Shown here: positions 13,012 to 39,069 of the stretch, one piece after another | Numbering within the stretch: position 1 is the first letter of the stretch | Layout of the letters: the number at the start of each line of letters is the position of its first letter | Made by a program: the position numbers and the translations under genes | Notes under the pieces: model-generated | Seen by the model: the letters and a program-made list of their open reading frames with translations, nothing else | Told to the model about the DNA's origin: nothing | Database searches by the model: none | IMG/VR virus record: IMGVR_UViG_3300032820_000003 | Location: 1 to 64,000 of that record | Reading direction: 5' to 3' (one strand) | Length of the DNA stretch: 64,000 nucleotides | DNA from: a virus

Positions 13012-13326
13012 TCACATTAGCTTTCTGATCCTCTCATGGTAAGCTTGCATCGTAGCCTTAATGACTTCTGGCTCGTCTAGCTTTGCGGTAGTGGAGAGAT
13101 AGCGGTCAAGCTGTTCTCTGATCTTATCCCGCTCCAGCCTGAGAGCCTGATAGTCTACCCTAGCAGTCACCTTGGCTACGCTCTCGGTGAGGTCGGCAGA
13201 CACTCTAATGACCGTATCAAAGAACTCGTCAAGGTCGATTAAACCTTCATCAAATTGTTCGCTAGCCATTGCTAGCCGTTTGATCCTAGCCATCGCCTCT
13301 ATTCTAGTAAATGATTGTTCTCCCAT
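13012..13326 (-). CDS. Hypothetical helical protein, divergent from the + strand cassette array
   Basis: 104 aa, AGGAGG RBS, followed by a hairpin. Confidence 0.7.
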   Translation of the reverse strand: MGEQSFTRIEAMARIKRLAMASEQFDEGLIDLDEFFDTVIRVSADLTESVAKVTARVDYQALRLERDKIREQLDRYLSTTAKLDEPEVIKATMQAYHERIRKLM

Positions 13327-13382
13327 ATCAAACCTCCTAAAGGTTTATTGTTTTAGTCCAGAACGTCTCTGAACATGGAACT

Positions 13383-13481
13383 ATTATATAGGACTGACAG
13401 AGGAATGCAACTATTTTGCAGTTTTATCAACTCGCCCCAGACTGCAAAAGATTTGACATGAGTAGGCAAATAATATAACAT
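13383..13481. promoter_or_regulatory. Divergent sigma70-type promoter pair
   Basis: + strand TTGACA 13453-58 / TAACAT 13476-81; - strand TTGCAT..TATAAT (13410-13383); inverted TTTTGCAG..CTGCAAAA around TTATCAAC. Confidence 0.6.
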
Positions 13482-13514
13482 AGTTGCACAACAAATAAGA
13501 ACAGGAGAAACCAA

Positions 13515-13796
13515 ATGTTAAAAGTAGAGATGCAGACAATAGAAAATTATGCAGATAATCCTTCCGATAACTATTGGAAGTTTAAAGGCGGAAATACCAT
13601 TGGTATCTTCGGATCAGATGACCGCCCTGCCAATGCAATAGCGTCCTTATTGGTAGAGAAAAAAGACGCTATTTTTAAGGAATTCCCATTTCATTGGGAA
13701 GTAATTAGAAATGGAAACGTGGATGACATTGATCTATTTTTCCGTTACGAATCTGATGGATCATTAAAACGCATCGTAGATGTTAAAGGAGCTTAA
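13515..13796 (+). CDS. Early hypothetical protein
   Basis: 93 aa, AGGAG RBS. Confidence 0.75.
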   Translation: MLKVEMQTIENYADNPSDNYWKFKGGNTIGIFGSDDRPANAIASLLVEKKDAIFKEFPFHWEVIRNGNVDDIDLFFRYESDGSLKRIVDVKGA

Positions 13797-13800
13797 TAAA

Positions 13801-14157
13801 ATGGAAGCATTAATAAATATCATTAGTCACGATCTAGTAGGTGGTTTGGCTGTAGGTTTATTGTTTGGTAGTGTGCTGAATTGGTACACTATCAAACACT
13901 ACACAATCAAACTAGTAAAGTCTGATGTGGCTAGGTTATGCGATAGCTACGAATTAGAATTAATCAAAGAGTATAAAAATGATGGTATGTTATGCAAATT
14001 CTGCGATAGGTTTAATCCATTGGTATGGGTACAAATTGAAGGTAGGCATCCTGTATGTCATGGTTTAACATCTAAAGACCATAAGGATAAAGGATTTAGT
14101 CGGATGTTACCATTTGACGGTCAAACATATCCTGATGTTTATAAGGTATATAAGTAA
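13801..14157 (+). CDS. Early membrane protein with Cys motif
   Basis: AAGGAG RBS before ATG 13801; TM helix then CKFC...CH. Confidence 0.65.
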   Translation: MEALINIISHDLVGGLAVGLLFGSVLNWYTIKHYTIKLVKSDVARLCDSYELELIKEYKNDGMLCKFCDRFNPLVWVQIEGRHPVCHGLTSKDHKDKGFSRMLPFDGQTYPDVYKVYK

Positions 14158-14212
14158 GTAGCCATAGAGGTAGCTAGCCTCCCGAATGGGAGGTTTAGCT
14201 AGGAGTAGTAGT

Positions 14213-14326
14213 ATGAAACCATTAGTTATAAAAATAAATCGCTTAAACGGCAGGAGATGGAAAGTTTATAAGATTCATGGATGGTTAGGTAGAGTTGTAA
14301 TTTATACCTATCACGAAAAACCATAG
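14213..14326 (+). CDS. Small basic protein (37 aa)
   Basis: AGGAG RBS; MKPLVIKINRLNGRRWKVYKIHGWLGRVVIYTYHEKP; below the ORF-track cutoff. Confidence 0.5.
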   Translation: MKPLVIKINRLNGRRWKVYKIHGWLGRVVIYTYHEKP

Positions 14327-14338
14327 GAGTAATAATAT

Positions 14339-14569
14339 ATGGCTAGGAGAAAAAAGAATAAGCCAGTTTTGAAATGGAATGAACAAGTATTTAATAATCA
14401 ATATTATGTAGGTAGTAAATTAGGAGGCACGTTTATAGGAAATGATGAGATAGGTTATATACACAAGTCTACTGTAATGGGAGGTAATGGCTACAGTAGA
14501 ACATATAGAGAAATGATTAATCAATTAAGAAATCAATATTGGTATAGGAGATTTGGAAATGGTAGCTAG
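14339..14569 (+). CDS. Early hypothetical protein
   Basis: 76 aa, AGGAG RBS. Confidence 0.65.
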   Translation: MARRKKNKPVLKWNEQVFNNQYYVGSKLGGTFIGNDEIGYIHKSTVMGGNGYSRTYREMINQLRNQYWYRRFGNGS

Positions 14570-14774
14570 TAAATATATATGTACAGGTAAAACGAAAGTA
14601 CATCATTTTATTGTAGATTCTCCCGCAGGAGAGCCAACAGTAAATGCTAAATGTAAATATTGTCAGTATCAAAGAATTCATAATATTACACCTGTAGATG
14701 TAATGGCATCAGGTAGAAAAGCTAATCAAGAAAAAATGAAAGCTAGAAGGCGAGGTGCAGATATAAAATTATAA
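14553..14774 (+). CDS. Small Zn-finger-like protein
   Basis: C..HHFIVD..CKYC motif, similar to the C-terminus of 19752..20042; start may be ATG 14559. Confidence 0.65.
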   Translation: MEMVASKYICTGKTKVHHFIVDSPAGEPTVNAKCKYCQYQRIHNITPVDVMASGRKANQEKMKARRRGADIKL

Positions 14775-14787
14775 ATCTAATATATAA

Positions 14788-14822
14788 ATATACCTTCAAT
14801 TATTTGAGGGTATATTTTTATA
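14788..14822 (+). terminator. Intrinsic terminator
   Basis: AATATACCTTCAA-TTAT-TTGAGGGTATATT followed by T run. Confidence 0.65.
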
Positions 14823-14926
14823 CATGGTAATTTTATCAACTCCACGAACTGCAAAAAACTTGTATTATATACTCAGTCATATATAATACCTTCAGGAGCA
14901 AAAAACAAATAAGTAAAGGAAATGAG

Positions 14927-15391
14927 ATGAAAATACATAACACAACCGAGCCTATCAGCAAGTTCAATTGGACTATTCACAATATGGCATCCGCTCCAAG
15001 TAGAGATGCAGATTCTACAGGTGGCGATGTACCACAATCTTTAATAGGTGAAATTATTTCGGGAGCCGTTAAAGAATCAGGTGCTAAATGGGTATTGTCG
15101 CCTGTAGGTAGAATGTGGGTAGATTGCATGAATCTTGATATAGATACTAAGGTTTTCTATAACAATATGATTGCTAGCGGTTATCCACATTGCCAACCAT
15201 GTTCAATGGATAACTGGAAACTGGAAGGTAATCTAGATAAGTTAGATTCTACCTTATCAGTTAAACCATGTTTTGATTGTGACTCCGAGGAAGTTTTAAA
15301 ACAATTGGCAATACGCCAAGCACGAAACGATAAAAAACGTGGTGGCAAAAACAAGACTGATAATTTGATTAAAAAATATATGCGGAATTAA
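14927..15391 (+). CDS. Early hypothetical protein with two CxxC motifs
   Basis: 154 aa; CQPC and CFDC; own promoter (TTGTAT 14860, TATAAT 14882). Confidence 0.7.
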   Translation: MKIHNTTEPISKFNWTIHNMASAPSRDADSTGGDVPQSLIGEIISGAVKESGAKWVLSPVGRMWVDCMNLDIDTKVFYNNMIASGYPHCQPCSMDNWKLEGNLDKLDSTLSVKPCFDCDSEEVLKQLAIRQARNDKKRGGKNKTDNLIKKYMRN

Positions 15392-15399
15392 GCCGTATA

Positions 15400-15585
15400 T
15401 ACCCCGCCCCCAGAGTTGCCACTCCTCTTCTCTGGGGGCATTTTGCCCCTTGATAAAATTAGATTTGATAACTTAGGCATTCCATTATTCCAGTCTTTCC
15501 ATGTTTCCGTATCCAATAGTGGGACATGATAGGAGTTGATAACTTGCAAATTAGTTGACCCTTATATGTGAATAGTATACAATAG
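15400..15585 (+). repeat. Composite inter-cassette element, copy 1
   Basis: GCCCCCAGAG..TCTGGGGGC hairpin, TTGATAA x2, TTCC repeats, GGGACATGATA (15521), TGCAAA, TTGACC-17-TACAAT. Confidence 0.8.
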
Positions 15586-15607
15586 TAACAAATCAAAGGA
15601 GATTAAT

Positions 15608-15859
15608 ATGGTAAATGCAGAAACACACAACACGGCAATGTGGTTAAGAAACCATTCTAAAGGTATGGAACAAACCATCTTACGGATAATGAGGGGACAG
15701 TCTCCAACTAAGTTTGCAGATAACCTTGAAACCTATGTGGGAATATTATGGGGAGACAGAACTCCAGATGGATACAGTTTAAAACCTGTTGATTGGGTTG
15801 AAATTTCAGACTCATGGTTAAATGAATATGGTATGGATTGGGAACAGTCTCCCCCCTAA
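15608..15859 (+). CDS. Early hypothetical phage protein
   Basis: 83 aa, AAGGAG RBS; stop codon lies in the loop of the downstream CCCCCC-TAAA-GGGGAG hairpin. Confidence 0.75.
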   Translation: MVNAETHNTAMWLRNHSKGMEQTILRIMRGQSPTKFADNLETYVGILWGDRTPDGYSLKPVDWVEISDSWLNEYGMDWEQSPP

Positions 15860-16013
15860 AGGGGAGGCTACCTTCTTATCAGGTCGCAAAATGCGACTTG
15901 GTAATTCCATTCTTTCCACTATTCCTTCCTTCCGTTTCCACCCATAAGGGGGACATGATAGAAATATTAACTCTAACAAAATACTTGTTTACTCGTATGT
16001 AATTTGCTATAAT
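15849..16013 (+). repeat. Composite inter-cassette element, copy 2
   Basis: CCCCCCTAAAGGGGAG, TTATCAGGTCGCAAAATGCGACTTGGTAA palindrome, TTCC repeats, GGACATGATA (15951), TTGTTT-17-TATAAT. Confidence 0.85.
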
Positions 16014-16041
16014 GTATATATCTTATAAAGGAGGTAGTCAT

Positions 16042-16134
16042 ATGAGTAAGGATGTTAGAAGCATCCGTTCAGTAGACAATCGGAAGTATTGCAAAGTTTG
16101 CAAACGCTTGACGGTAGTCTGTTGGAAGTGGTAG
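16042..16134 (+). CDS. 30-aa Cys-containing peptide
   Basis: AAGGAGGT RBS; MSKDVRSIRSVDNRKYCKVCKRLTVVCWKW. Confidence 0.5.
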   Translation: MSKDVRSIRSVDNRKYCKVCKRLTVVCWKW

Positions 16135-16214
16135 TCTTTCATTACTCTATTAAGTGTTATCCTGTGAGATAGCAATAGAGTATATTAATTAAGTAGTGAA
16201 AAAAGAGGTTTAAT

Positions 16215-16475
16215 ATGACAATCGGATTTTCAGAACAAGAAACAATACATGACGGAATTAGAAGGAAATACACCTTTGAAAATTCATATGGTGCTTCAGT
16301 AATAAGTCATAGCGGATCATATGGCGGGAAGTTTGGTTTGTGGGAATTAGCAGTTCTGTATAATGATGAATTATGTTATACTACACCTATTACTAATGAT
16401 GTTATAGGTTGGTTAAATGATGAGGATTTACAAGGAGTGCTTAATAAAATTAAAGCCTTACCTGACCCCCCCTAA
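16215..16475 (+). CDS. Conserved phage hypothetical protein (FxNxYGASVI..SYGG..GLWELAVL type)
   Basis: 86 aa; recognisable widespread phage motif; stop codon inside the downstream hairpin. Confidence 0.8.
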   Translation: MTIGFSEQETIHDGIRRKYTFENSYGASVISHSGSYGGKFGLWELAVLYNDELCYTTPITNDVIGWLNDEDLQGVLNKIKALPDPP

Positions 16476-16637
16476 AGGGGGGTTGCCCTTTTATCAGGTC
16501 GCCTTTTGCGACTAGATAATTCCGTTTCTTTCCAATCATTCCACCCTTTCCATTATTCCCCTCTATATTCCGGGGACATGATAAGACTTGATAAGACTGC
16601 AATATAATTGACTACACCCCCTAAATTGATATATACT
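16466..16637 (+). repeat. Composite inter-cassette element, copy 3
   Basis: CCCCCCCTAAAGGGGGG, TTATCAGGTCGCCTTTTGCGACTAGATAA, six TTCC, GGGGACATGATAA, CTGCAA, TTGACT-18-TATACT. Confidence 0.85.
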
Positions 16638-16692
16638 GTATTCATCAAGTCGAGAGGGGGCATCCTCTCATAAACAAAAAGGAGATTTTAAA

Positions 16693-16950
16693 ATGGCAGA
16701 TGTAATAGACTTCAACGGTGATACGGAAAAGATCAAGGCTTATCAGTTAACCACCTTGTACAGGGCTGTTGAGTTGGAAGGAAAGACAGGCATGAAACTG
16801 TCCTCTAGAGGTTCAGCTTTATCAGTAGCCAAAAAACAATGGGGTTTCAAAGGCAGTAGAATAAAAATTCTAAGTCAGATTCATTACACCATTAGAGGTA
16901 TGGGGTATCCTCACCGAGGCCCCCTAGATGCCTACAGACAAGACAAGTAG
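16693..16950 (+). CDS. Early hypothetical phage protein
   Basis: 85 aa, AAGGAG RBS. Confidence 0.75.
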   Translation: MADVIDFNGDTEKIKAYQLTTLYRAVELEGKTGMKLSSRGSALSVAKKQWGFKGSRIKILSQIHYTIRGMGYPHRGPLDAYRQDK

Positions 16951-16956
16951 CAATCT

Positions 16957-17147
16957 CCTCCCCCCTTATGCCCAAGGGGGGTTTTCACCCCAATAGGCTT
17001 ATCAAGTCTAACAGCGATTAGACCTGATAATTCCGCCTTTCCAGTTATTTCCAGTTTCCAAGCCTTCCCATAGTTCGACATGATAGAATTATCAACCCCC
17101 GGCAAAACTGCAAAAAACTTGAACAATGGTATGGCATATGGCATAAT
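16957..17147 (+). repeat. Composite inter-cassette element, copy 4
   Basis: CCCCCCTT..AAGGGGGG-TTTT, TTATCAAGTCTAA..TTAGACCTGATAA, five TTCC, GACATGATA (17077), CTGCAAAA, TTGAAC-17-CATAAT. Confidence 0.85.
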
Positions 17148-17195
17148 TAAAGAGTCGAAGGAAACAAACAAGCCAACGGACTTAGGAGGTTCAAT

Positions 17196-17438
17196 ATGGC
17201 AAAGAAAAAAGAATTTAGCGAAGGTTTCGGAATCGAAAGAAATGACAAGGGTGAGGCAACTCACATAGTCGCAAGGTTACCCATTGAGGATGGGGCGACC
17301 ACGGCATCAGGATTGACAAGGTACTTCACCTGTCAAAACTACAACGAAGGGGATCATGAATTGCATGATTCAAAAGAGGATAGGTTGGTCGTATCGATGA
17401 CCGCCTATCAGGGAAAACCGAGGAAGGCTAAGAAATAG
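17196..17438 (+). CDS. Early hypothetical protein
   Basis: 80 aa, AGGAGGT RBS. Confidence 0.75.
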   Translation: MAKKKEFSEGFGIERNDKGEATHIVARLPIEDGATTASGLTRYFTCQNYNEGDHELHDSKEDRLVVSMTAYQGKPRKAKK

Positions 17439-17439
17439 C

Positions 17440-17765
17440 CCCTCACCCCCCTAGGTAACCTTCGACCCTAGGGGGGGTTTTATCCCCTCTAGTTTTTATC
17501 AAAACTATTATTAAGTCTAATTTTATCAACTCCCTTTCCAATGCTTCCAAGGGAGGGAGGCTTTCCAAAGGGTTCCAGTAATCCTTTCCGCCCCTCATCC
17601 TAGAGTTGGTAAAACCTTTATCAACCCTATTTCCTTCCAGTTTCCATCCAGTCGCTTTCCTTCCTTCCCTAATAGTTCTACATGATAAGAATAAGAAGCT
17701 TCCTTCCTCTGTAGGAAAAGGGACATGATAAGGACTCCCTCTATATATTTATCATGTACGGAAAT
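17440..17765. repeat. Expanded terminal copy of the element at the convergence of the two early transcription units
   Basis: CCCCCCTAGG..CCTAGGGGGG-TTTT hairpin, several TTTATCAA, >10 TTCC, ACATGATA at 17680 and 17723 plus an inverted copy at 17750; no promoter follows. Confidence 0.8.
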
Positions 17766-17770
17766 CAAAT

Positions 17771-17816
17771 AAAAAAACAACCTCGCTACTAAGTATTTAT
17801 CCTAGTAGCAAGGCTC
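17771..17816 (-). terminator. Intrinsic terminator of the leftward early region
   Basis: GCCTTGCTACTAG..TAGTAGCGAGGT-TGTTTTTTT on the minus strand. Confidence 0.75.
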
Positions 17817-17827
17817 TTATATTATTC

Positions 17828-18442
17828 CTAGAAGATTTCCTCTTTTGCAATTCCTATATTTTTCCTATGCTGTACCCATGTAGTAGCTTGCAATGTATGT
17901 ACTGGAATTCCTAGATTCTTACTAGCTTTTTTATAGGCTACCTGTATTCGCTTCATGATTCTCTTACTACCAAATACTTTATTTAATTCTTGTTTAGTAG
18001 GAATCTTGCCGTAGTAGACTGCTATTGCATGTCTATCTATTACTGCATTTGTATTACTAGTAGGTTGCATGATTGCATGGAAAAAAGCTGTTACTTTTTG
18101 TCCGCCCAATATACTAGTAGGCTCTGCACCGTTCTTTATTGCTAGTGCTTTATTATTATTTATTTTAGTTTGTCGTGGTGACCATCCCTCTAATACTATT
18201 CGCCATGCTTCTATAATATTAGAATCCCAGTCCATTTGTGGACTCATCACCGCTAGTAGTCCCGCACCCATACTAGTATTACCAGAACCGATCTGGTCAG
18301 CAATCATCCTAGCATTAGGATACCAGTCTTTACCCTCTTCTATACTAGACTCGCTAGCTAGTAGGTAAGCCATCTCGATATTATCGGCTGATCCCTTTAC
18401 TATATTATCTGACTTGTAGTATTTTCTCTGCTTAGTAGTCAT
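17828..18442 (-). CDS. DUF7178-type phage protein (predicted HhH-GPD glycosylase-like fold)
   Basis: Motifs G.DWY, AVMSPQ..W..N, G.KV.AF, VIDRHA, LQATTW; start moved to ATG 18442 (GGAG RBS; promoter lies in the longer ORF's 5' extension). Confidence 0.6.
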   Translation of the reverse strand: MTTKQRKYYKSDNIVKGSADNIEMAYLLASESSIEEGKDWYPNARMIADQIGSGNTSMGAGLLAVMSPQMDWDSNIIEAWRIVLEGWSPRQTKINNNKALAIKNGAEPTSILGGQKVTAFFHAIMQPTSNTNAVIDRHAIAVYYGKIPTKQELNKVFGSKRIMKRIQVAYKKASKNLGIPVHTLQATTWVQHRKNIGIAKEEIF

Positions 18443-18482
18443 TGCGTTTCTCCGCTGTTGGCTATTTTCTCGACCTGTGAAT

Positions 18483-18512
18483 ATCTTAGCATAGCCATAA
18501 AACACAGGTCAA
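18483..18512 (-). promoter_or_regulatory. Early sigma70-type promoter
   Basis: TTGACC-18-TAAGAT with extended TG. Confidence 0.75.
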
Positions 18513-37695: not shown

Positions 37696-39069
37696 CTAGG
37701 ACGTAGCGTTCAAGTCACCAATCTTGGACTGTACCCAGATATTTCTGCATCGCATTTCACCCATTGTGTAGAGTAGACCTCTAACAACAAGTGCATTGGC
37801 GGCGAAGTAATCTCTGTTCTCTACATACTGCGTGGGTTGCGCTATGGCAATTTCCATGTAGTCTGTATCAAGTACATAGATGTTTGACCCAAGAACTGAG
37901 TCATCGGCGGCTACTGAACTTGGTACATCCGCATCTGGTAGAATTGGGATACCTTGATAAGTAGCGAGGACTAGTCCAGTTCGTGTACCGGGGAAGGTTC
38001 TTTCAGAACCGACTCCAACCTGATACTCTTCCTGTCCCATGTACCTCTGATTGCTATTAAGCAACCTTTCCAAGTTAAAGTACTGGTCGTGACCAAGTAG
38101 GATCAACTTAGGCTCACCACCATTCTGCCTGATATTCTGTATAGCTGTATCAAGCAAAGTAAGGGTGAGGTTTCGTCCAACACCAGCATTCATGCTGACG
38201 TTAGCGGATGCGTTCCATTGTCCTGCGGCCCTACCACCAAAGGTAAGGTCATAGGCTCGGATACCACCATTTGCTGCGAAGTTAGCATTAGGAGTACCGC
38301 CAATAAAGTTTTGACCGTCCTCTGCTACTACGTCATCAAGTGATGTCATTCCAGCCCTGCTGTAAATAGCAACTCCGTCACCATCGGCAAAAGCTGTACC
38401 GCTTGCCAAGGTAACAACACCAGTAGTAGTATTAACAGCCGAGACTGTTCGTCCTACTTCACCTGTAATCCAGTTATTAGCTGAAGTGTCGTATTGTGCT
38501 ACTGTGTCACCAACTTTAAAGCTGGCTGCCATAGATGCTGGAACTGTAAAAGAAGTTGTTCCACCAGCAGATGTAATCATTGCTGCGGGGGACAATAGTT
38601 CCTCGTTAATTTCTTTGATGTGGTCAAGCTGTGCATTTTCGTTTTCCAACGCCAACACATCTCCTACGCCACCCTCAAGCTGTGCAGTAAAGACGGACTT
38701 TACCGATGCTCCGAAAGTGGTTGCTACGATTCGGGGTAAACTCGATACCGTTGCGATGTTTGAGATATCAACATCTGGAAGGGTTCCTGTTTCTGTAACA
38801 GGGCGGGATCGTCCTGAACCACGATCAGTTCTGACCCTCCAACCAGCTGTATTTCCCCAGACAGTTCTGGGAATGGCATTGAAGAAACGAGTTTGGTTAT
38901 TCAAAGCTTGCCATACTTTTCGTCCATACGTAGTATTAAAAATACCAGTTGCAGTATCGACTGTGAAATATGATTGTTTCATCATATACTCAGGGCCAAA
39001 TACGCTCTGATACAAACCACGCTGAGACTGTGCTACATATTCACTAAGTGATGGGTTTGACATACTCAT
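37696..39069 (-). CDS. Major capsid protein (HK97 fold) with beta-rich insertion
   Basis: 457 aa after scaffold; V.ETG.LP, G.P..IL, YQGIPI..D, IY.LDT motifs; followed by terminator. Confidence 0.85.
   Translation of the reverse strand: MSMSNPSLSEYVAQSQRGLYQSVFGPEYMMKQSYFTVDTATGIFNTTYGRKVWQALNNQTRFFNAIPRTVWGNTAGWRVRTDRGSGRSRPVTETGTLPDVDISNIATVSSLPRIVATTFGASVKSVFTAQLEGGVGDVLALENENAQLDHIKEINEELLSPAAMITSAGGTTSFTVPASMAASFKVGDTVAQYDTSANNWITGEVGRTVSAVNTTTGVVTLASGTAFADGDGVAIYSRAGMTSLDDVVAEDGQNFIGGTPNANFAANGGIRAYDLTFGGRAAGQWNASANVSMNAGVGRNLTLTLLDTAIQNIRQNGGEPKLILLGHDQYFNLERLLNSNQRYMGQEEYQVGVGSERTFPGTRTGLVLATYQGIPILPDADVPSSVAADDSVLGSNIYVLDTDYMEIAIAQPTQYVENRDYFAANALVVRGLLYTMGEMRCRNIWVQSKIGDLNATS

Follow-up and report, generated by a model that had tools for sequence, protein, structure and literature searches.

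Organization of the island

The window analysed here comprises positions 1-64,000 of the IMG/VR record IMGVR_UViG_3300032820_000003 (85 kb in its complete form), which belongs to a lineage of uncultured marine phages with a family A polymerase and an SU10-type capsid protein. Our search of the complete record revealed that a composite element, consisting of a GC hairpin, TTATCA/TGATAA motifs, a strand-specific TTCC tract, a ACATGATAA box and a sigma70-like promoter, is confined to a + strand island at 13.5-17.8 kb. The island is probably the hyperplastic gene region of an apparently lytic phage; its promoters, terminators and probable 'early' timing are predicted from the sequence alone, and none of the RNA runs matched against this sequence contains it. 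An array of such spacers had been described in the original prediction, and all its positions proved correct.

The island opens with a divergent promoter region (13327..13514, + strand), which carries only the promoter-side half of the element, without the TTCC tract: TTATCAAC at 13424, CTGCAAAA at 13442, a -35 at 13453 and a -10 ending at 13481 on the + strand, and a mirrored CTGCAAAA (13408-13422) that serves the - strand gene. The polycistronic left part (13515..14774, + strand) contains five small ORFan genes (93, 125, 46, 76 and 73 aa), between which full spacers are absent. It is followed by a promoter-only spacer (14775..14926, + strand), also devoid of the TTCC tract, with an AT-rich hairpin and T run (14781-14822), a box variant TACATGGTAA at 14821, TTATCAAC at 14833, CTGCAAAA at 14849, a -35 TTGTAT (14860) and a -10 TATAAT (14882). 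The partial copies formerly placed at 13420 and 14821 are present, as the promoter-side half only.

The remaining genes and spacers are likewise on the + strand. A cargo gene of 154 aa without a family match (14927..15391) precedes spacer 1 (15392..15607), in which a GC hairpin (15406-15439) is followed by direct TGATAA units at 15451 and 15466, a TTCC tract (15480-15508), the box (15523-15531), a unit GTTGATAA at 15535, a -35 at 15555 and a -10 ending at 15583. The next cargo gene (83 aa, 15608..15859) has its last codons and stop codon inside the GC hairpin (15846-15869) of spacer 2 (15860..16042), which continues with an inverted unit pair (15876-15904), a tract (15905-15939), the box (15952-15960), a -35 TTGTTT (15985) and a -10 TATAAT (16008-16013). 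A replaceable cassette (16017..16485) comprises a 5' UTR, a 30-40-aa ORF and a phrog_4074 gene (86 aa, 16215-16475) with its own GC hairpin (16463-16485). Spacer 3 (16486..16692) contains an inverted unit pair (16491-16519), a tract (16520-16571), the box (16575-16583), a unit TTGATAAG at 16588, a -35 at 16608 and a -10 ending at 16637; it leads to an 85-aa gene of phrog_19182 (unknown function, 16693..16950). In spacer 4 (16951..17195) we found a GC hairpin with TTTT (16960-16986), an inverted unit pair (16999-17030) whose inner stem differs, a tract (17031-17068), the box (17077-17085), TTATCAAC at 17089, CTGCAAAA at 17108, a -35 at 17119 and a -10 ending at 17147, upstream of the last cargo gene (80 aa, family F2, with a basic tail; 17196..17438).

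The expanded copy predicted at 17440-17765 is real and corresponds to a terminal module (17439..17778, + strand), which lies at a convergent junction with no promoter downstream. It contains hairpins (17443-17492), units at 17496, 17523 and 17618, TTCC tracts at 17536-17590, 17631-17669 and 17700-17708, boxes at 17680 and 17722, and the sole inverted box, TTATCATGT (17749-17757). Beyond it lie a predicted strong intrinsic terminator (17779..17815, - strand) and the gene to which it belongs, a DUF7178 gene (17828-18505, - strand) that converges on the island.

About a dozen related uncultured marine phages yielded 70 distinct copies of the element, and as many as 13 cassettes can follow one another. 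Matches to the composite number 103 in 0.33 Mb of family loci vs 4 in 2.33 Mb of unrelated DNA, the latter being due to chance. The order of parts, originally noted as conserved between spacers, is also kept in distant relatives in which the flanking DUF7178 protein is only 46-54% identical.

One unit and its variants

The motifs originally listed as separate parts are present, but a single 12-13-bp unit, TTATCA[A/T]NTCTAA, underlies the arms of the second palindrome, TGATAA, TTATCAAC and the GACATGATA box, all of them variants of it in one or the other orientation; the PWMs of the forward unit, the reverse unit and the box coincide. CTGCAAA is likewise present, but it is specific to this lineage. 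Each spacer holds two to five units in direct or inverted order. The palindrome, TTATCA-RGTC..GACY-WGATAA, occurs at 15876, 16491 and 16999, while in spacer 1, where it had been called degenerate, the two direct TGATAA units stand in its place. Its inner stem has 43 extra pairs vs 9.2 +/- 3.3 in shuffled sequences (0 of 2000 reach 43).

GACATGATA occurs five times in the window vs 1.05 expected (none of 100 shuffles reaches five), namely at the four positions given in the original prediction (15523, 15952, 16575 and 17077) and at 17722, always on the + strand and inside the island; the 85-kb genome contains it nowhere else. The box accompanies promoters at steps of ~10 bp from the -35, with distances clustering at 3, 20-23, 31-32, 40-43 and 52, a phasing based on approximately six independent classes of distance and on promoter predictions. 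Almost all relatives for which the island end was captured have an inverted box pair there; none was seen in L178.

The TTCC tract

The predicted TTCC tracts were confirmed as arrays of 4-6 units without GGAA in spacers 1-4, with three more at 17536-17708, but the spacing of 8-10 bp is a property of this lineage only, the family having mostly 4-6. TTCC is 5.3-fold over the expectation from composition (423 vs 84.5 +/- 8), while TCTC, CTCC and CCTC are depleted, which points to motif-specific recognition or microsatellite dynamics. The tract is 47 +/- 18 nt long (T 41%, C 38%, A 14%, G 6.5%) and is on the sense strand in all 70 copies, its strand relative to the box being fixed by how the copies were collected.

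The tract tracks transcription-unit 3' ends. None of the three first promoters examined (in the window, L171 and L165) has it, although those in L171 and L165 keep the box, and it is present, in multiplied form, at terminal modules without a promoter downstream; hence it belongs to 3' ends. L136-type relatives have one extra module between genes that lie on the opposite strand, where local transcripts would read GGAA. For a rut site C-rich, G-poor RNA would suffice, yet TTCC as such is enriched. Published rut descriptors are a pyrimidine-rich, G-poor character and a footprint of ~57 nt (PMC6144790, PMC12350095), and the composition and length of the tract fit them.

Cargo genes and cassette exchange

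The cargo genes are mutually unrelated, as noted from the outset. Cargo comprises 141 families among 218 ORFs, and its turnover is almost complete. Comparison of contigs, from which all exchanges and rearrangements were read, revealed that the window differs from its 86-89% identical relatives L005 and L200 by exactly one cassette: homology stops at 16016, and in both relatives the 16017..16485 slot is filled by another cassette, whose hairpin differs and whose gene encodes 122-128 aa. The replaced segment begins immediately downstream of the -10 and ends immediately downstream of the GC hairpin; in other exchange events the breakpoints lie elsewhere in the spacer. The phrog_19182 gene of the window is also present in L005 and L200 (63% aa identity). 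In distant relatives the spacer grammar is kept and the cargo almost wholly different, so that cargo identity does change between conserved spacers, which the original prediction had proposed as its own test. Tandem duplications also occur in the family (F4|F10|F4, F5|F5, F0|F0 and F2|F2).

Comparison of the window with L200 gave identities of 97-100% for unit pairs and 93-100% for boxes vs 59-94% for cargo coding sequences; the 154-aa gene shows 59% nucleotide identity and its flanking spacers 82-96%. F2 or a small beta protein, F0, is encoded near the island end in every relative; these are the only cargo kept in every lineage, they lie near the terminal inverted boxes, and in many relatives an other-strand copy of F0/F2 is flanked by two modules. 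The confidently predicted, all-beta structure of F0 has no structural match, including among known nucleic-acid-binding folds, and comparison of F0 with F2 did not establish homology. We regard F2 as a candidate binder of the unit.

Possible function of the spacers

The palindrome, the TTCC tract and the box are still not explained by promoter or terminator function, as originally remarked, and the roles offered here are putative. We propose, with modest confidence, that the spacers are punctuation resembling promoter-early stem-loop (PeSL) cassettes, which combines terminator, insulator and promoter and also drives homologous shuffling of cassettes. Every small gene in the right half of the island would be an autonomous transcription unit, in agreement with the predicted sigma70-like promoters and GC hairpins, and each 130-250-bp spacer would be assembled from reusable parts: a GC-rich 3' hairpin that moves together with the cargo, two to five direct or inverted units, a strand-specific, G-poor TTCC tract of ~50 nt between units, and a sigma70-type promoter preceded, in steps of ~10 bp, by the ACATGATAA variant of the unit. 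The unit could be recognized by a single sequence-specific DNA-binding protein with which early transcription is controlled or blocked, bound singly at promoters and in pairs at the island end, akin to mycobacteriophage stoperators. The tract would enter the RNA only when a polymerase reads through the hairpin, and it may there form an unstructured stretch of pyrimidines on which a termination factor is loaded, as at a Rho-type rut site, so that each cassette would be insulated and convergent genes protected. Since spacers stay nearly identical while cargo drifts, they could serve as portable homology, with which the general recombination of the phage would replace, duplicate and reorder cassettes without a dedicated integrase.

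It is possible, though rather unlikely, that the spacers act at the DNA level, as a nucleoprotein insulator or silencer in which a phage protein (e.g. F0 or F2) coats TTCC between anchor units, shutting off early promoters and blocking read-through without Rho or any role of RNA. The motif specificity of TTCC beyond pyrimidine richness, its constant bracketing by units, the conservation of units and tract above that of cargo, the phased box-to-(-35) spacing, and the ubiquity and location of F0/F2, including its other-strand copies between two modules, argue for such a structure, as does the extra module of L136, which keeps its own internal orientation regardless of local transcription. However, the irregular 4-10-bp spacing of TTCC units would be unusual in a duplex-binding array, the strict strand asymmetry of the tract and its lack at first promoters suit a transcript-level role equally, and F0 has neither a known nucleic-acid-binding fold nor established homology to F2. 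We give little credence to a site-specific platform that borrows a host Xer-like tyrosine recombinase, a phage counterpart of pdif/attC in which the 12-bp units are recombinase-binding arms and the hairpin-forming inverted pairs are recombination substrates. The box-type unit is an arm of a palindrome, ACATGATAA-N6/7-TTATCATGT, and 16 of 120 bacterial matches, all with N = 6-7 and from several phyla (Nitrospirota, Rhodobacteraceae, Acidobacteriaceae, Arthrobacter and others), lie 0-1550 nt from an Xer-like recombinase gene (15 within 800 nt, often within 30 nt). The phage pairs, like attC sites, have conserved arms and a variable self-complementary centre, one cassette was swapped cleanly, and modules that are flanked by Xer sites but lack a recombinase are known (PMC6449649, PMC13141974). 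Yet inward-facing phage units are spaced by 0-4 or at least 11 bp with no enrichment at 6-7, the arm polarity of the hairpin pairs is opposite to that of the bacterial site, most spacers hold single units or direct repeats, and, as there are many site families, a match of 9-12 bp to one of them may be fortuitous. The complete 85-kb genome encodes no tyrosine or serine recombinase, which bears out the earlier remark that no integrase was visible in the window. Integron-like capture gains no support, given this lack, the promoter in every cassette, the variable breakpoints and the absence of a 6-7-bp core between inverted units; of the originally suggested capture and shuffling platform, shuffling is supported by the cargo swap and site-specific capture is not.

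A reiterated replication origin (iteron) or packaging/genome-end module, with units as initiator or terminase sites and the expanded terminal copy as the functional one, seems highly improbable. Some relatives have iteron-like direct arrays with a pitch of 13-16 bp, the terminal module is the largest and sits at the convergent junction with its inverted box pair, and in L136 arrays of oriented short motifs run on past it; against this, up to 13 consecutive copies are each tied to the terminator and promoter of a gene, the parts segregate with transcript ends and promoters, and an adjacent initiator gene is absent. The repetition also makes the originally suggested origin unlikely, and the original interpretation as a whole is partly supported. 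Hardly credible is a function of the antisense strand, whose leftward GGA/AGGAA transcripts would be a sponge for a CsrA/RsmA-type host regulator. The commonest tract words do reverse-complement to AGGAA or TGGAA, but the CsrC-like Rfam match (17410-17632, - strand, E 0.011) scores 19 bits, far below the 61-bit gathering threshold, the island has no evident leftward promoter, the only incoming - strand unit is closed by the strong terminator at 17779-17815, and the GGA motifs are not in hairpin loops.

Comparison with known systems

In the pdif modules of Acinetobacter (Xer) and in attC arrays, rows of unrelated small modules are bounded by a repeated short site, and for pdif the host supplies the recombinase (PMC6449649, PMC13141974). 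The phage unit is identical to the arm of a dif-like palindrome found beside bacterial Xer-like recombinase genes, but the phage has neither 6-bp-spaced full sites nor an integrase, each of its cassettes carries a promoter and terminator, and its exchange breakpoints are not fixed. Rho terminators share with the spacers an untranslated, pyrimidine-rich, G-poor sense-strand tract of ~50 nt that directly follows a stem-loop and has a YC dinucleotide every 4-10 nt (PMC6144790, PMC12350095); natural rut sites, in contrast, have no fixed word, whereas TTCC is specifically enriched in the phage tract, for which a role of Rho is putative. The stoperators of Cluster A mycobacteriophages (PMC9283540, PMC6550527) are also asymmetric 12-14-bp words that a single phage carries many times in its short intergenic regions, at promoters and between genes, with a fixed orientation relative to transcription. 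They are spread genome-wide in temperate phages with a known repressor, whereas the word described here belongs to an apparently lytic phage, in which it is restricted to a single island and occurs in both orientations upstream of the tract.

The analogy with the PeSL cassettes of T4-like phages (Arbiol et al. 2010, PMC2839356; Comeau et al. 2014, PMC4122927), drawn in the original prediction, fits, as cargo differs between conserved spacers. In both systems a polyG/polyC stem-loop terminator is combined with a strong sigma70-like promoter, the composite recurs between the ORFan genes of a hyperplastic region, and the indels and replacements that distinguish related phages have their endpoints within the repeated motif, with no dedicated recombinase involved. 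The spacers of this family A polymerase, SU10-type marine lineage differ in being two to three times longer, in having a special terminal module, and in adding the multi-copy 12-13-bp unit and the strand-specific TTCC tract to the PeSL plan.

Setting of the island in the phage genome

The complete virus record comprises 85,063 bp, of which the window covers bases 1-64000, and codes for a family A DNA polymerase, a DnaB-like helicase, a ribonucleotide reductase, a terminase, a portal and an SU10-type capsid protein. Nearly all genes of the window lie on the - strand; the exception is a + strand island (13515-17438), bordered on the left by a divergent promoter region (13327-13514) and on the right by a convergent junction (17439-17827), beyond which lies the gene for a DUF7178 protein (17828-18505). 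Searches of the complete record with the tyrosine and serine recombinase profiles PF00589 and PF00239 gave no match, with positive controls, so that the absence of an integrase noted for the window extends to the whole 85-kb genome. A search for relatives of a neighboring protein of 1646 aa found none. The closest cultured relatives of the capsid protein (37696-39069) are the haloarchaeal siphoviruses HVTV-1, HCTV-1 and HCTV-5 (27-30% over about half of its length), and the GenBank phage set contains no closer bacterial phage. This kinship raised the possibility of an archaeal host, which we rejected because of the canonical -35/-10 promoters, the Shine-Dalgarno sites and the bacterial-type replication genes.

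Anatomy of the spacers

The original prediction described the spacers between the island genes as a fixed order of hairpin, second palindrome, TTCC units, box and promoter, and these parts were recovered by our analysis. The box GACATGATA occurs five times in the window, always in the island and on the + strand (1.05 copies expected), and is absent from the rest of the 85-kb genome; its orientation is uniform in all five copies, the sole exceptions being inverted partners at the island ends. Each of four spacers contains 4-6 TTCC and zero GGAA, and three such tracts are found in the terminal region. The palindrome is present at 15876, 16491 and 16999, and the promoter-like sites and hairpins were found at the positions initially proposed. 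One element of the description has to be revised: according to position frequencies a single unit, TTATCA[A/T]NTCTAA, underlies both the TTATCA/TGATAA words and the box (read in reverse complement), the box being its T-G variant. The box-anchored consensus across the elements of the phage family is TT(a/c)gACATGATAAgAaT.

In the family spacers the stretch from the GC hairpin to the TTCC tract always consists of TTATCA/TGATAA words. Their arrangement varies: some spacers have the inverted pair first described as a palindrome, some an inverted pair with reversed polarity, and others two or three direct repeats. The variable centre of 23 distinct inverted pairs adds 43 base pairs to the stem vs. 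9.2 +/- 3.3 in shuffles, and at least five different inner stems occur with pairing kept, hence the pairing is maintained by compensatory change, as had been suggested from fewer copies. The hairpin is not universal, since the centre is unpaired, and shared, in six of the inverted-pair copies, and direct repeats take the place of the pair in many spacers. A C-run/G-run stem-loop, predicted to be a terminator, lies upstream of each full spacer, and RNA folds of the spacers show two hairpins followed by an unpaired tract. On sequence evidence, the -35/-10 pairs at 13453, 15555, 16608 and 17119 score 9-10 of 12, and TGnTATAAT occurs at 16005-16013; across the family a promoter score of at least 9 of 12 was obtained for 39 of 70 elements. 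An Rfam search gave zero matches above threshold. As explanations of the unit, DnaA boxes, IHF, Fur, FNR, LexA, NarL/BvgA-type heptads, N4-type hairpin promoters and lambda nut/boxB were considered unlikely, because their motifs appear to differ from it.

The tract is composed of 41% T, 38% C, 14% A and 6.5% G, is 47 +/- 18 nt long (70 elements), and ends about 12 nt before the box. Its TTCC words are mostly spaced by 4-6, with spacings of 8-10 mainly in the lineage of the window, and are 5.3-fold more frequent than expected from composition, whereas the other tetramers made of the same pyrimidines are depleted. Nowhere in the island except in the spacers does C exceed G on the sense strand.

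Distribution among related phages

A blastn search of GenBank phages with the island revealed no similar sequence, and cultured relatives of the flanking DUF7178 protein show at most 34% identity to it. Searches with this protein identified a close relative, L005 (86%), and an alignment of its homologs retrieved the viral contigs L136-L139 (46%) and 49 metagenome loci. In the relatives with 46-54% identity, as well as in L005 and the other close relative L200, a TTCC array followed by a ACATGATAA box recurs about every 500 bp on the opposite strand downstream of the DUF7178 gene, with 13 such arrays in L171, 11 in L174, 10 in L170, 9 in L166 and 8 in L156. Relatives with 35-39% identity lack both the motifs and an opposite-strand island. 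After removal of duplicates, the family loci provided 70 distinct tract-plus-box elements. Matches to the composite signature numbered 103 in the family loci (0.33 Mb) vs. 4 in unrelated loci (2.33 Mb), which included some picked for the presence of the box.

Among simpler patterns, ACATGATARGANTTGATAA retrieved only the contig of L005, while two others were discarded: TTATCAGGTCGCNNNNGCGAC gave four chance matches in viral contigs, which fell within coding sequence of a phage unrelated to the family, and TTATCAAC..ACTGCAAAA was unspecific, with more than 119 single matches. Short low-depth contigs from the sequencing runs X4, X16 and X19 match the region 13300-17900 only in the spacer motifs and carry tract sequences resembling those of L156; the presence of such tracts in the same marine plankton samples implies that several members of the phage family co-occur.

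Association of the parts with transcript ends and promoters

The first promoter of an island receives no sense transcription from upstream. In the three cases examined (the window, L171 and L165) it has no tract, yet the box is kept in L171 and L165. Conversely, no promoter follows the terminal modules, in which one to three tracts accompany the hairpins, units and boxes. Together, the tract-less first promoters and the promoter-less terminal modules indicate that the tract and its upstream units belong to predicted transcript 3' ends, and the box to predicted promoters. One spacer of the window (14775-14926) has no tract and combines a promoter and a variant of the box with an AT-rich terminator that includes a T run. 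The distances from the box to the predicted -35 fall into a few independent classes (3, 20-23, 31-32, 40-43 and 52) separated by steps of about 10 bp, and steps of this kind, in this small number of classes, could reflect the requirement of a protein that faces RNA polymerase. At the DUF7178-proximal end of the island the box faces an inverted box, 3-27 bp away, in nearly every relative for which this end was captured; such a pair was not seen in L178. Past the terminal module of the L136-type relatives, the oriented words CTGCCCT, CTCTGTA and CTGTAG are densely packed over about 400 bp (L136 ~13330-12880, - strand).

Constraint on the spacers and turnover of the cargo

Between the window and L200 the unit pairs are 97-100% identical, the boxes 93-100%, the tracts 81-98% and the promoters 85-90%, vs. 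59-94% for the cargo genes, i.e. the non-coding parts are held tighter than several of the genes that they separate. The genes themselves are unrelated to one another, as originally stated: about eleven ORFs of the island show no mutual similarity, and two of them match PHROG families of unknown function. Most cargo has no family match, and PHROGs and Pfam searches of cargo and neighbors returned only phrog_4074 and phrog_19182, whose function is unknown. Across 20 loci, 218 cargo ORFs fall into 141 families, 100 of which are singletons, and tandem duplicates are present.

The identity and order of the cargo between conserved spacers differ among relatives. A single cassette distinguishes the window from L005 and L200: homology ends at 16016, just past the -10, and restarts at 16486, past the GC hairpin and ahead of the unit pair, so that the exchanged piece is a transcribed unit together with its own hairpin. 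In L170 and L171, whose flanks are 93% identical, cassettes have been duplicated, reordered and replaced, with one right-hand breakpoint within the tract. The window and L136 share both flanks and none of the island cargo. Variable breakpoints in conserved repeats and the absence of a recombinase fit homologous exchange in the manner of the promoter/stem-loop cassettes (PeSLs), where breakpoints likewise lie in conserved repeats (PMC2839356, PMC4122927).

The island is intact in contigs from four DNA runs, although assembled contigs cannot reveal circles such as the cassette mini-circles of PeSLs; apparent "joints" in these contigs turned out to be short cross-matches from co-occurring relatives rather than excised forms. 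The first island gene of the window (13515-13796) is 44% identical over 45 aa to L136:11141-11467 (+), which lies outside the island of L136 and on the other strand. The first cassette of L156 (read on the - strand) and that of L005 show 70-74% nucleotide identity in the promoter, 5' UTR and terminator hairpin, while similarity of their proteins (~128 aa) is undetectable; this could be due either to extreme divergence or to replacement of the ORF only.

Conserved small proteins at the island end

The sole island cargo retained across all lineages consists of two families of small proteins, F0 and F2: one or the other lies near the terminal module in every lineage, close to the terminal inverted boxes, and both together occur in none of the loci seen. 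F0 proteins have 60-70 aa, often with a lysine-rich tail, and are often encoded in two copies, one of them on the other strand between two modules (in L136, 14528-14728 (-) and 13464-13694 (+)). The predicted fold of F0 is six-stranded, all-beta and confident (pLDDT 88.7). It had no match in Pfam, PDB sequences, Foldseek or VIA, only viral hypothetical clusters in the Atlas, and a search of viral contigs found the phage of L136 alone. F2, present in the window at 17196-17438, gave a low-confidence model (pLDDT 50) and no match in the Atlas; the profile comparison between F0 and F2 is weak, and F2 is a possible analog of F0. Neither F0 nor F2 matches a known fold or family. By position alone, F0/F2 is a candidate binder of the unit.

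The word as part of a putative dif-like site in bacteria

A scan for ACATGATAA-N2-8-TTATCATGT in prokaryotic genomes, with each species represented once, identified more than 120 matches. Among those listed, 16 adjoin a gene for a Xer-like tyrosine recombinase, often within 30 nt, all with a centre of 6-7 nt and in several phyla; the bacteria include Nitrospirota, Rhodobacteraceae, Acidobacteriaceae, Arthrobacter and others (bacterial loci L204:193-216, L212:1395-1418, L211:5793-5817, L268:6472-6496 and 12 more). This adjacency suggests that in those bacteria the word is an arm of a dif-like site, and ACATGATAA-N6/7-TTATCATGT looks like an undescribed site of this kind with its recombinase. 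In Rhodobacteraceae, a nearby protein has weak, mostly sub-threshold matches to the Pfam families HTH_13, MarR_2 and DUF1403, and in two of three loci examined this HTH-like protein is encoded directly beside the palindrome. In many Veillonella genomes (L236:151-173 and about 20 other loci) the palindrome recurs with a 5-bp centre; its distance from the start of the record is about 150 bp in a complete chromosome.

Possible mechanisms

Sequence comparison establishes the grammar of the element, how far it is conserved and specific, the link of individual parts to predicted transcript ends or promoters, and the exchange of cassettes at spacers. Non-coding parts more conserved than the genes they separate must be recognized by something, and identification of this factor would open a way to study how early genes are controlled in phages that so far could not be cultivated. 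By analogy with stoperators (PMC9283540), we propose that a single protein binds the unit and either regulates early transcription or acts as a roadblock to it; as in a set of stoperators, one asymmetric site, here the box, recurs many times in an orientation linked to transcription. Once transcribed, the tract would form an unstructured UC-rich RNA downstream of a 3' hairpin and might recruit Rho-type termination (PMC6144790, PMC12350095), since it resembles a rut site in being an untranslated, unstructured stretch of the sense strand, rich in C (38%) and poor in G (6.5%). The specificity for TTCC counts against regarding this reading of the tract as settled, and the main alternative is a nucleoprotein insulator acting purely at the DNA level.

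The bacterial palindromes raise another explanation, namely that the 12-bp unit is a recombinase arm and the island a cassette platform of a recombinase-less phage, run by a Xer-like enzyme of the host acting on hairpin-folded unit pairs, with exchange as in pdif modules (PMC6449649, PMC13141974). The 16 loci in which the arm sequence adjoins Xer-like genes speak for it, but a full Xer/pdif site has inverted arms around a 6-8-bp centre, which the inward pairs of the phages do not reproduce: in 13 phage islands inward-facing units are separated by 0-4 or at least 11, with a spacing of 7 in only two cases. Moreover, the hairpin pairs of the phages have the opposite polarity and single units dominate. 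We therefore consider such host-driven exchange very improbable; if true, integrons and pdif modules would have their first counterpart in a phage, and a marine phage family would obtain exchangeable genes for host takeover in this way.

Comparison with known systems

The anti-host and anti-defence genes of phages originate and turn over in accessory ("ORFan") regions. To our knowledge, the organization and exchange of these regions are known in detail only for T4-like phages. The integron analogy proposed originally is not supported, as integrons (IntI/attC) have an integrase beside the array, of which the complete 85-kb record contains none, and promoterless cassettes under a common promoter, whereas here a promoter-like site, a ribosome-binding site and a hairpin accompany every single cassette. 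An iteron origin has one array of direct repeats beside an AT-rich unwinding region and an initiator gene; direct unit arrays exist in some relatives, they recur in every spacer, and no initiator gene is adjacent. The PeSL-type cassette agrees with the observations: there, as here, each repeat contains a strong sigma70-like promoter (predicted in our case) and an adjacent G/C-run stem-loop (here a predicted terminator), and indels or replacements between relatives end in the repeats that flank ORFans. The element is real, widespread and strongly constrained, and represents a more elaborate version of the PeSL from a new phage family. It extends the PeSL principle of self-contained cassettes with conserved punctuation to unrelated, widespread, uncultured marine (largely deep-water) phages, and its spacers are a practical sequence marker by which such islands, with their cargo, can be located in metagenomes. 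Compared with the T4-like version its grammar is much richer: a TTCC tract is linked to predicted transcript ends, and one word of 12-13 bp serves at promoters, downstream of terminators and, paired in inverted order, at the border of the island.
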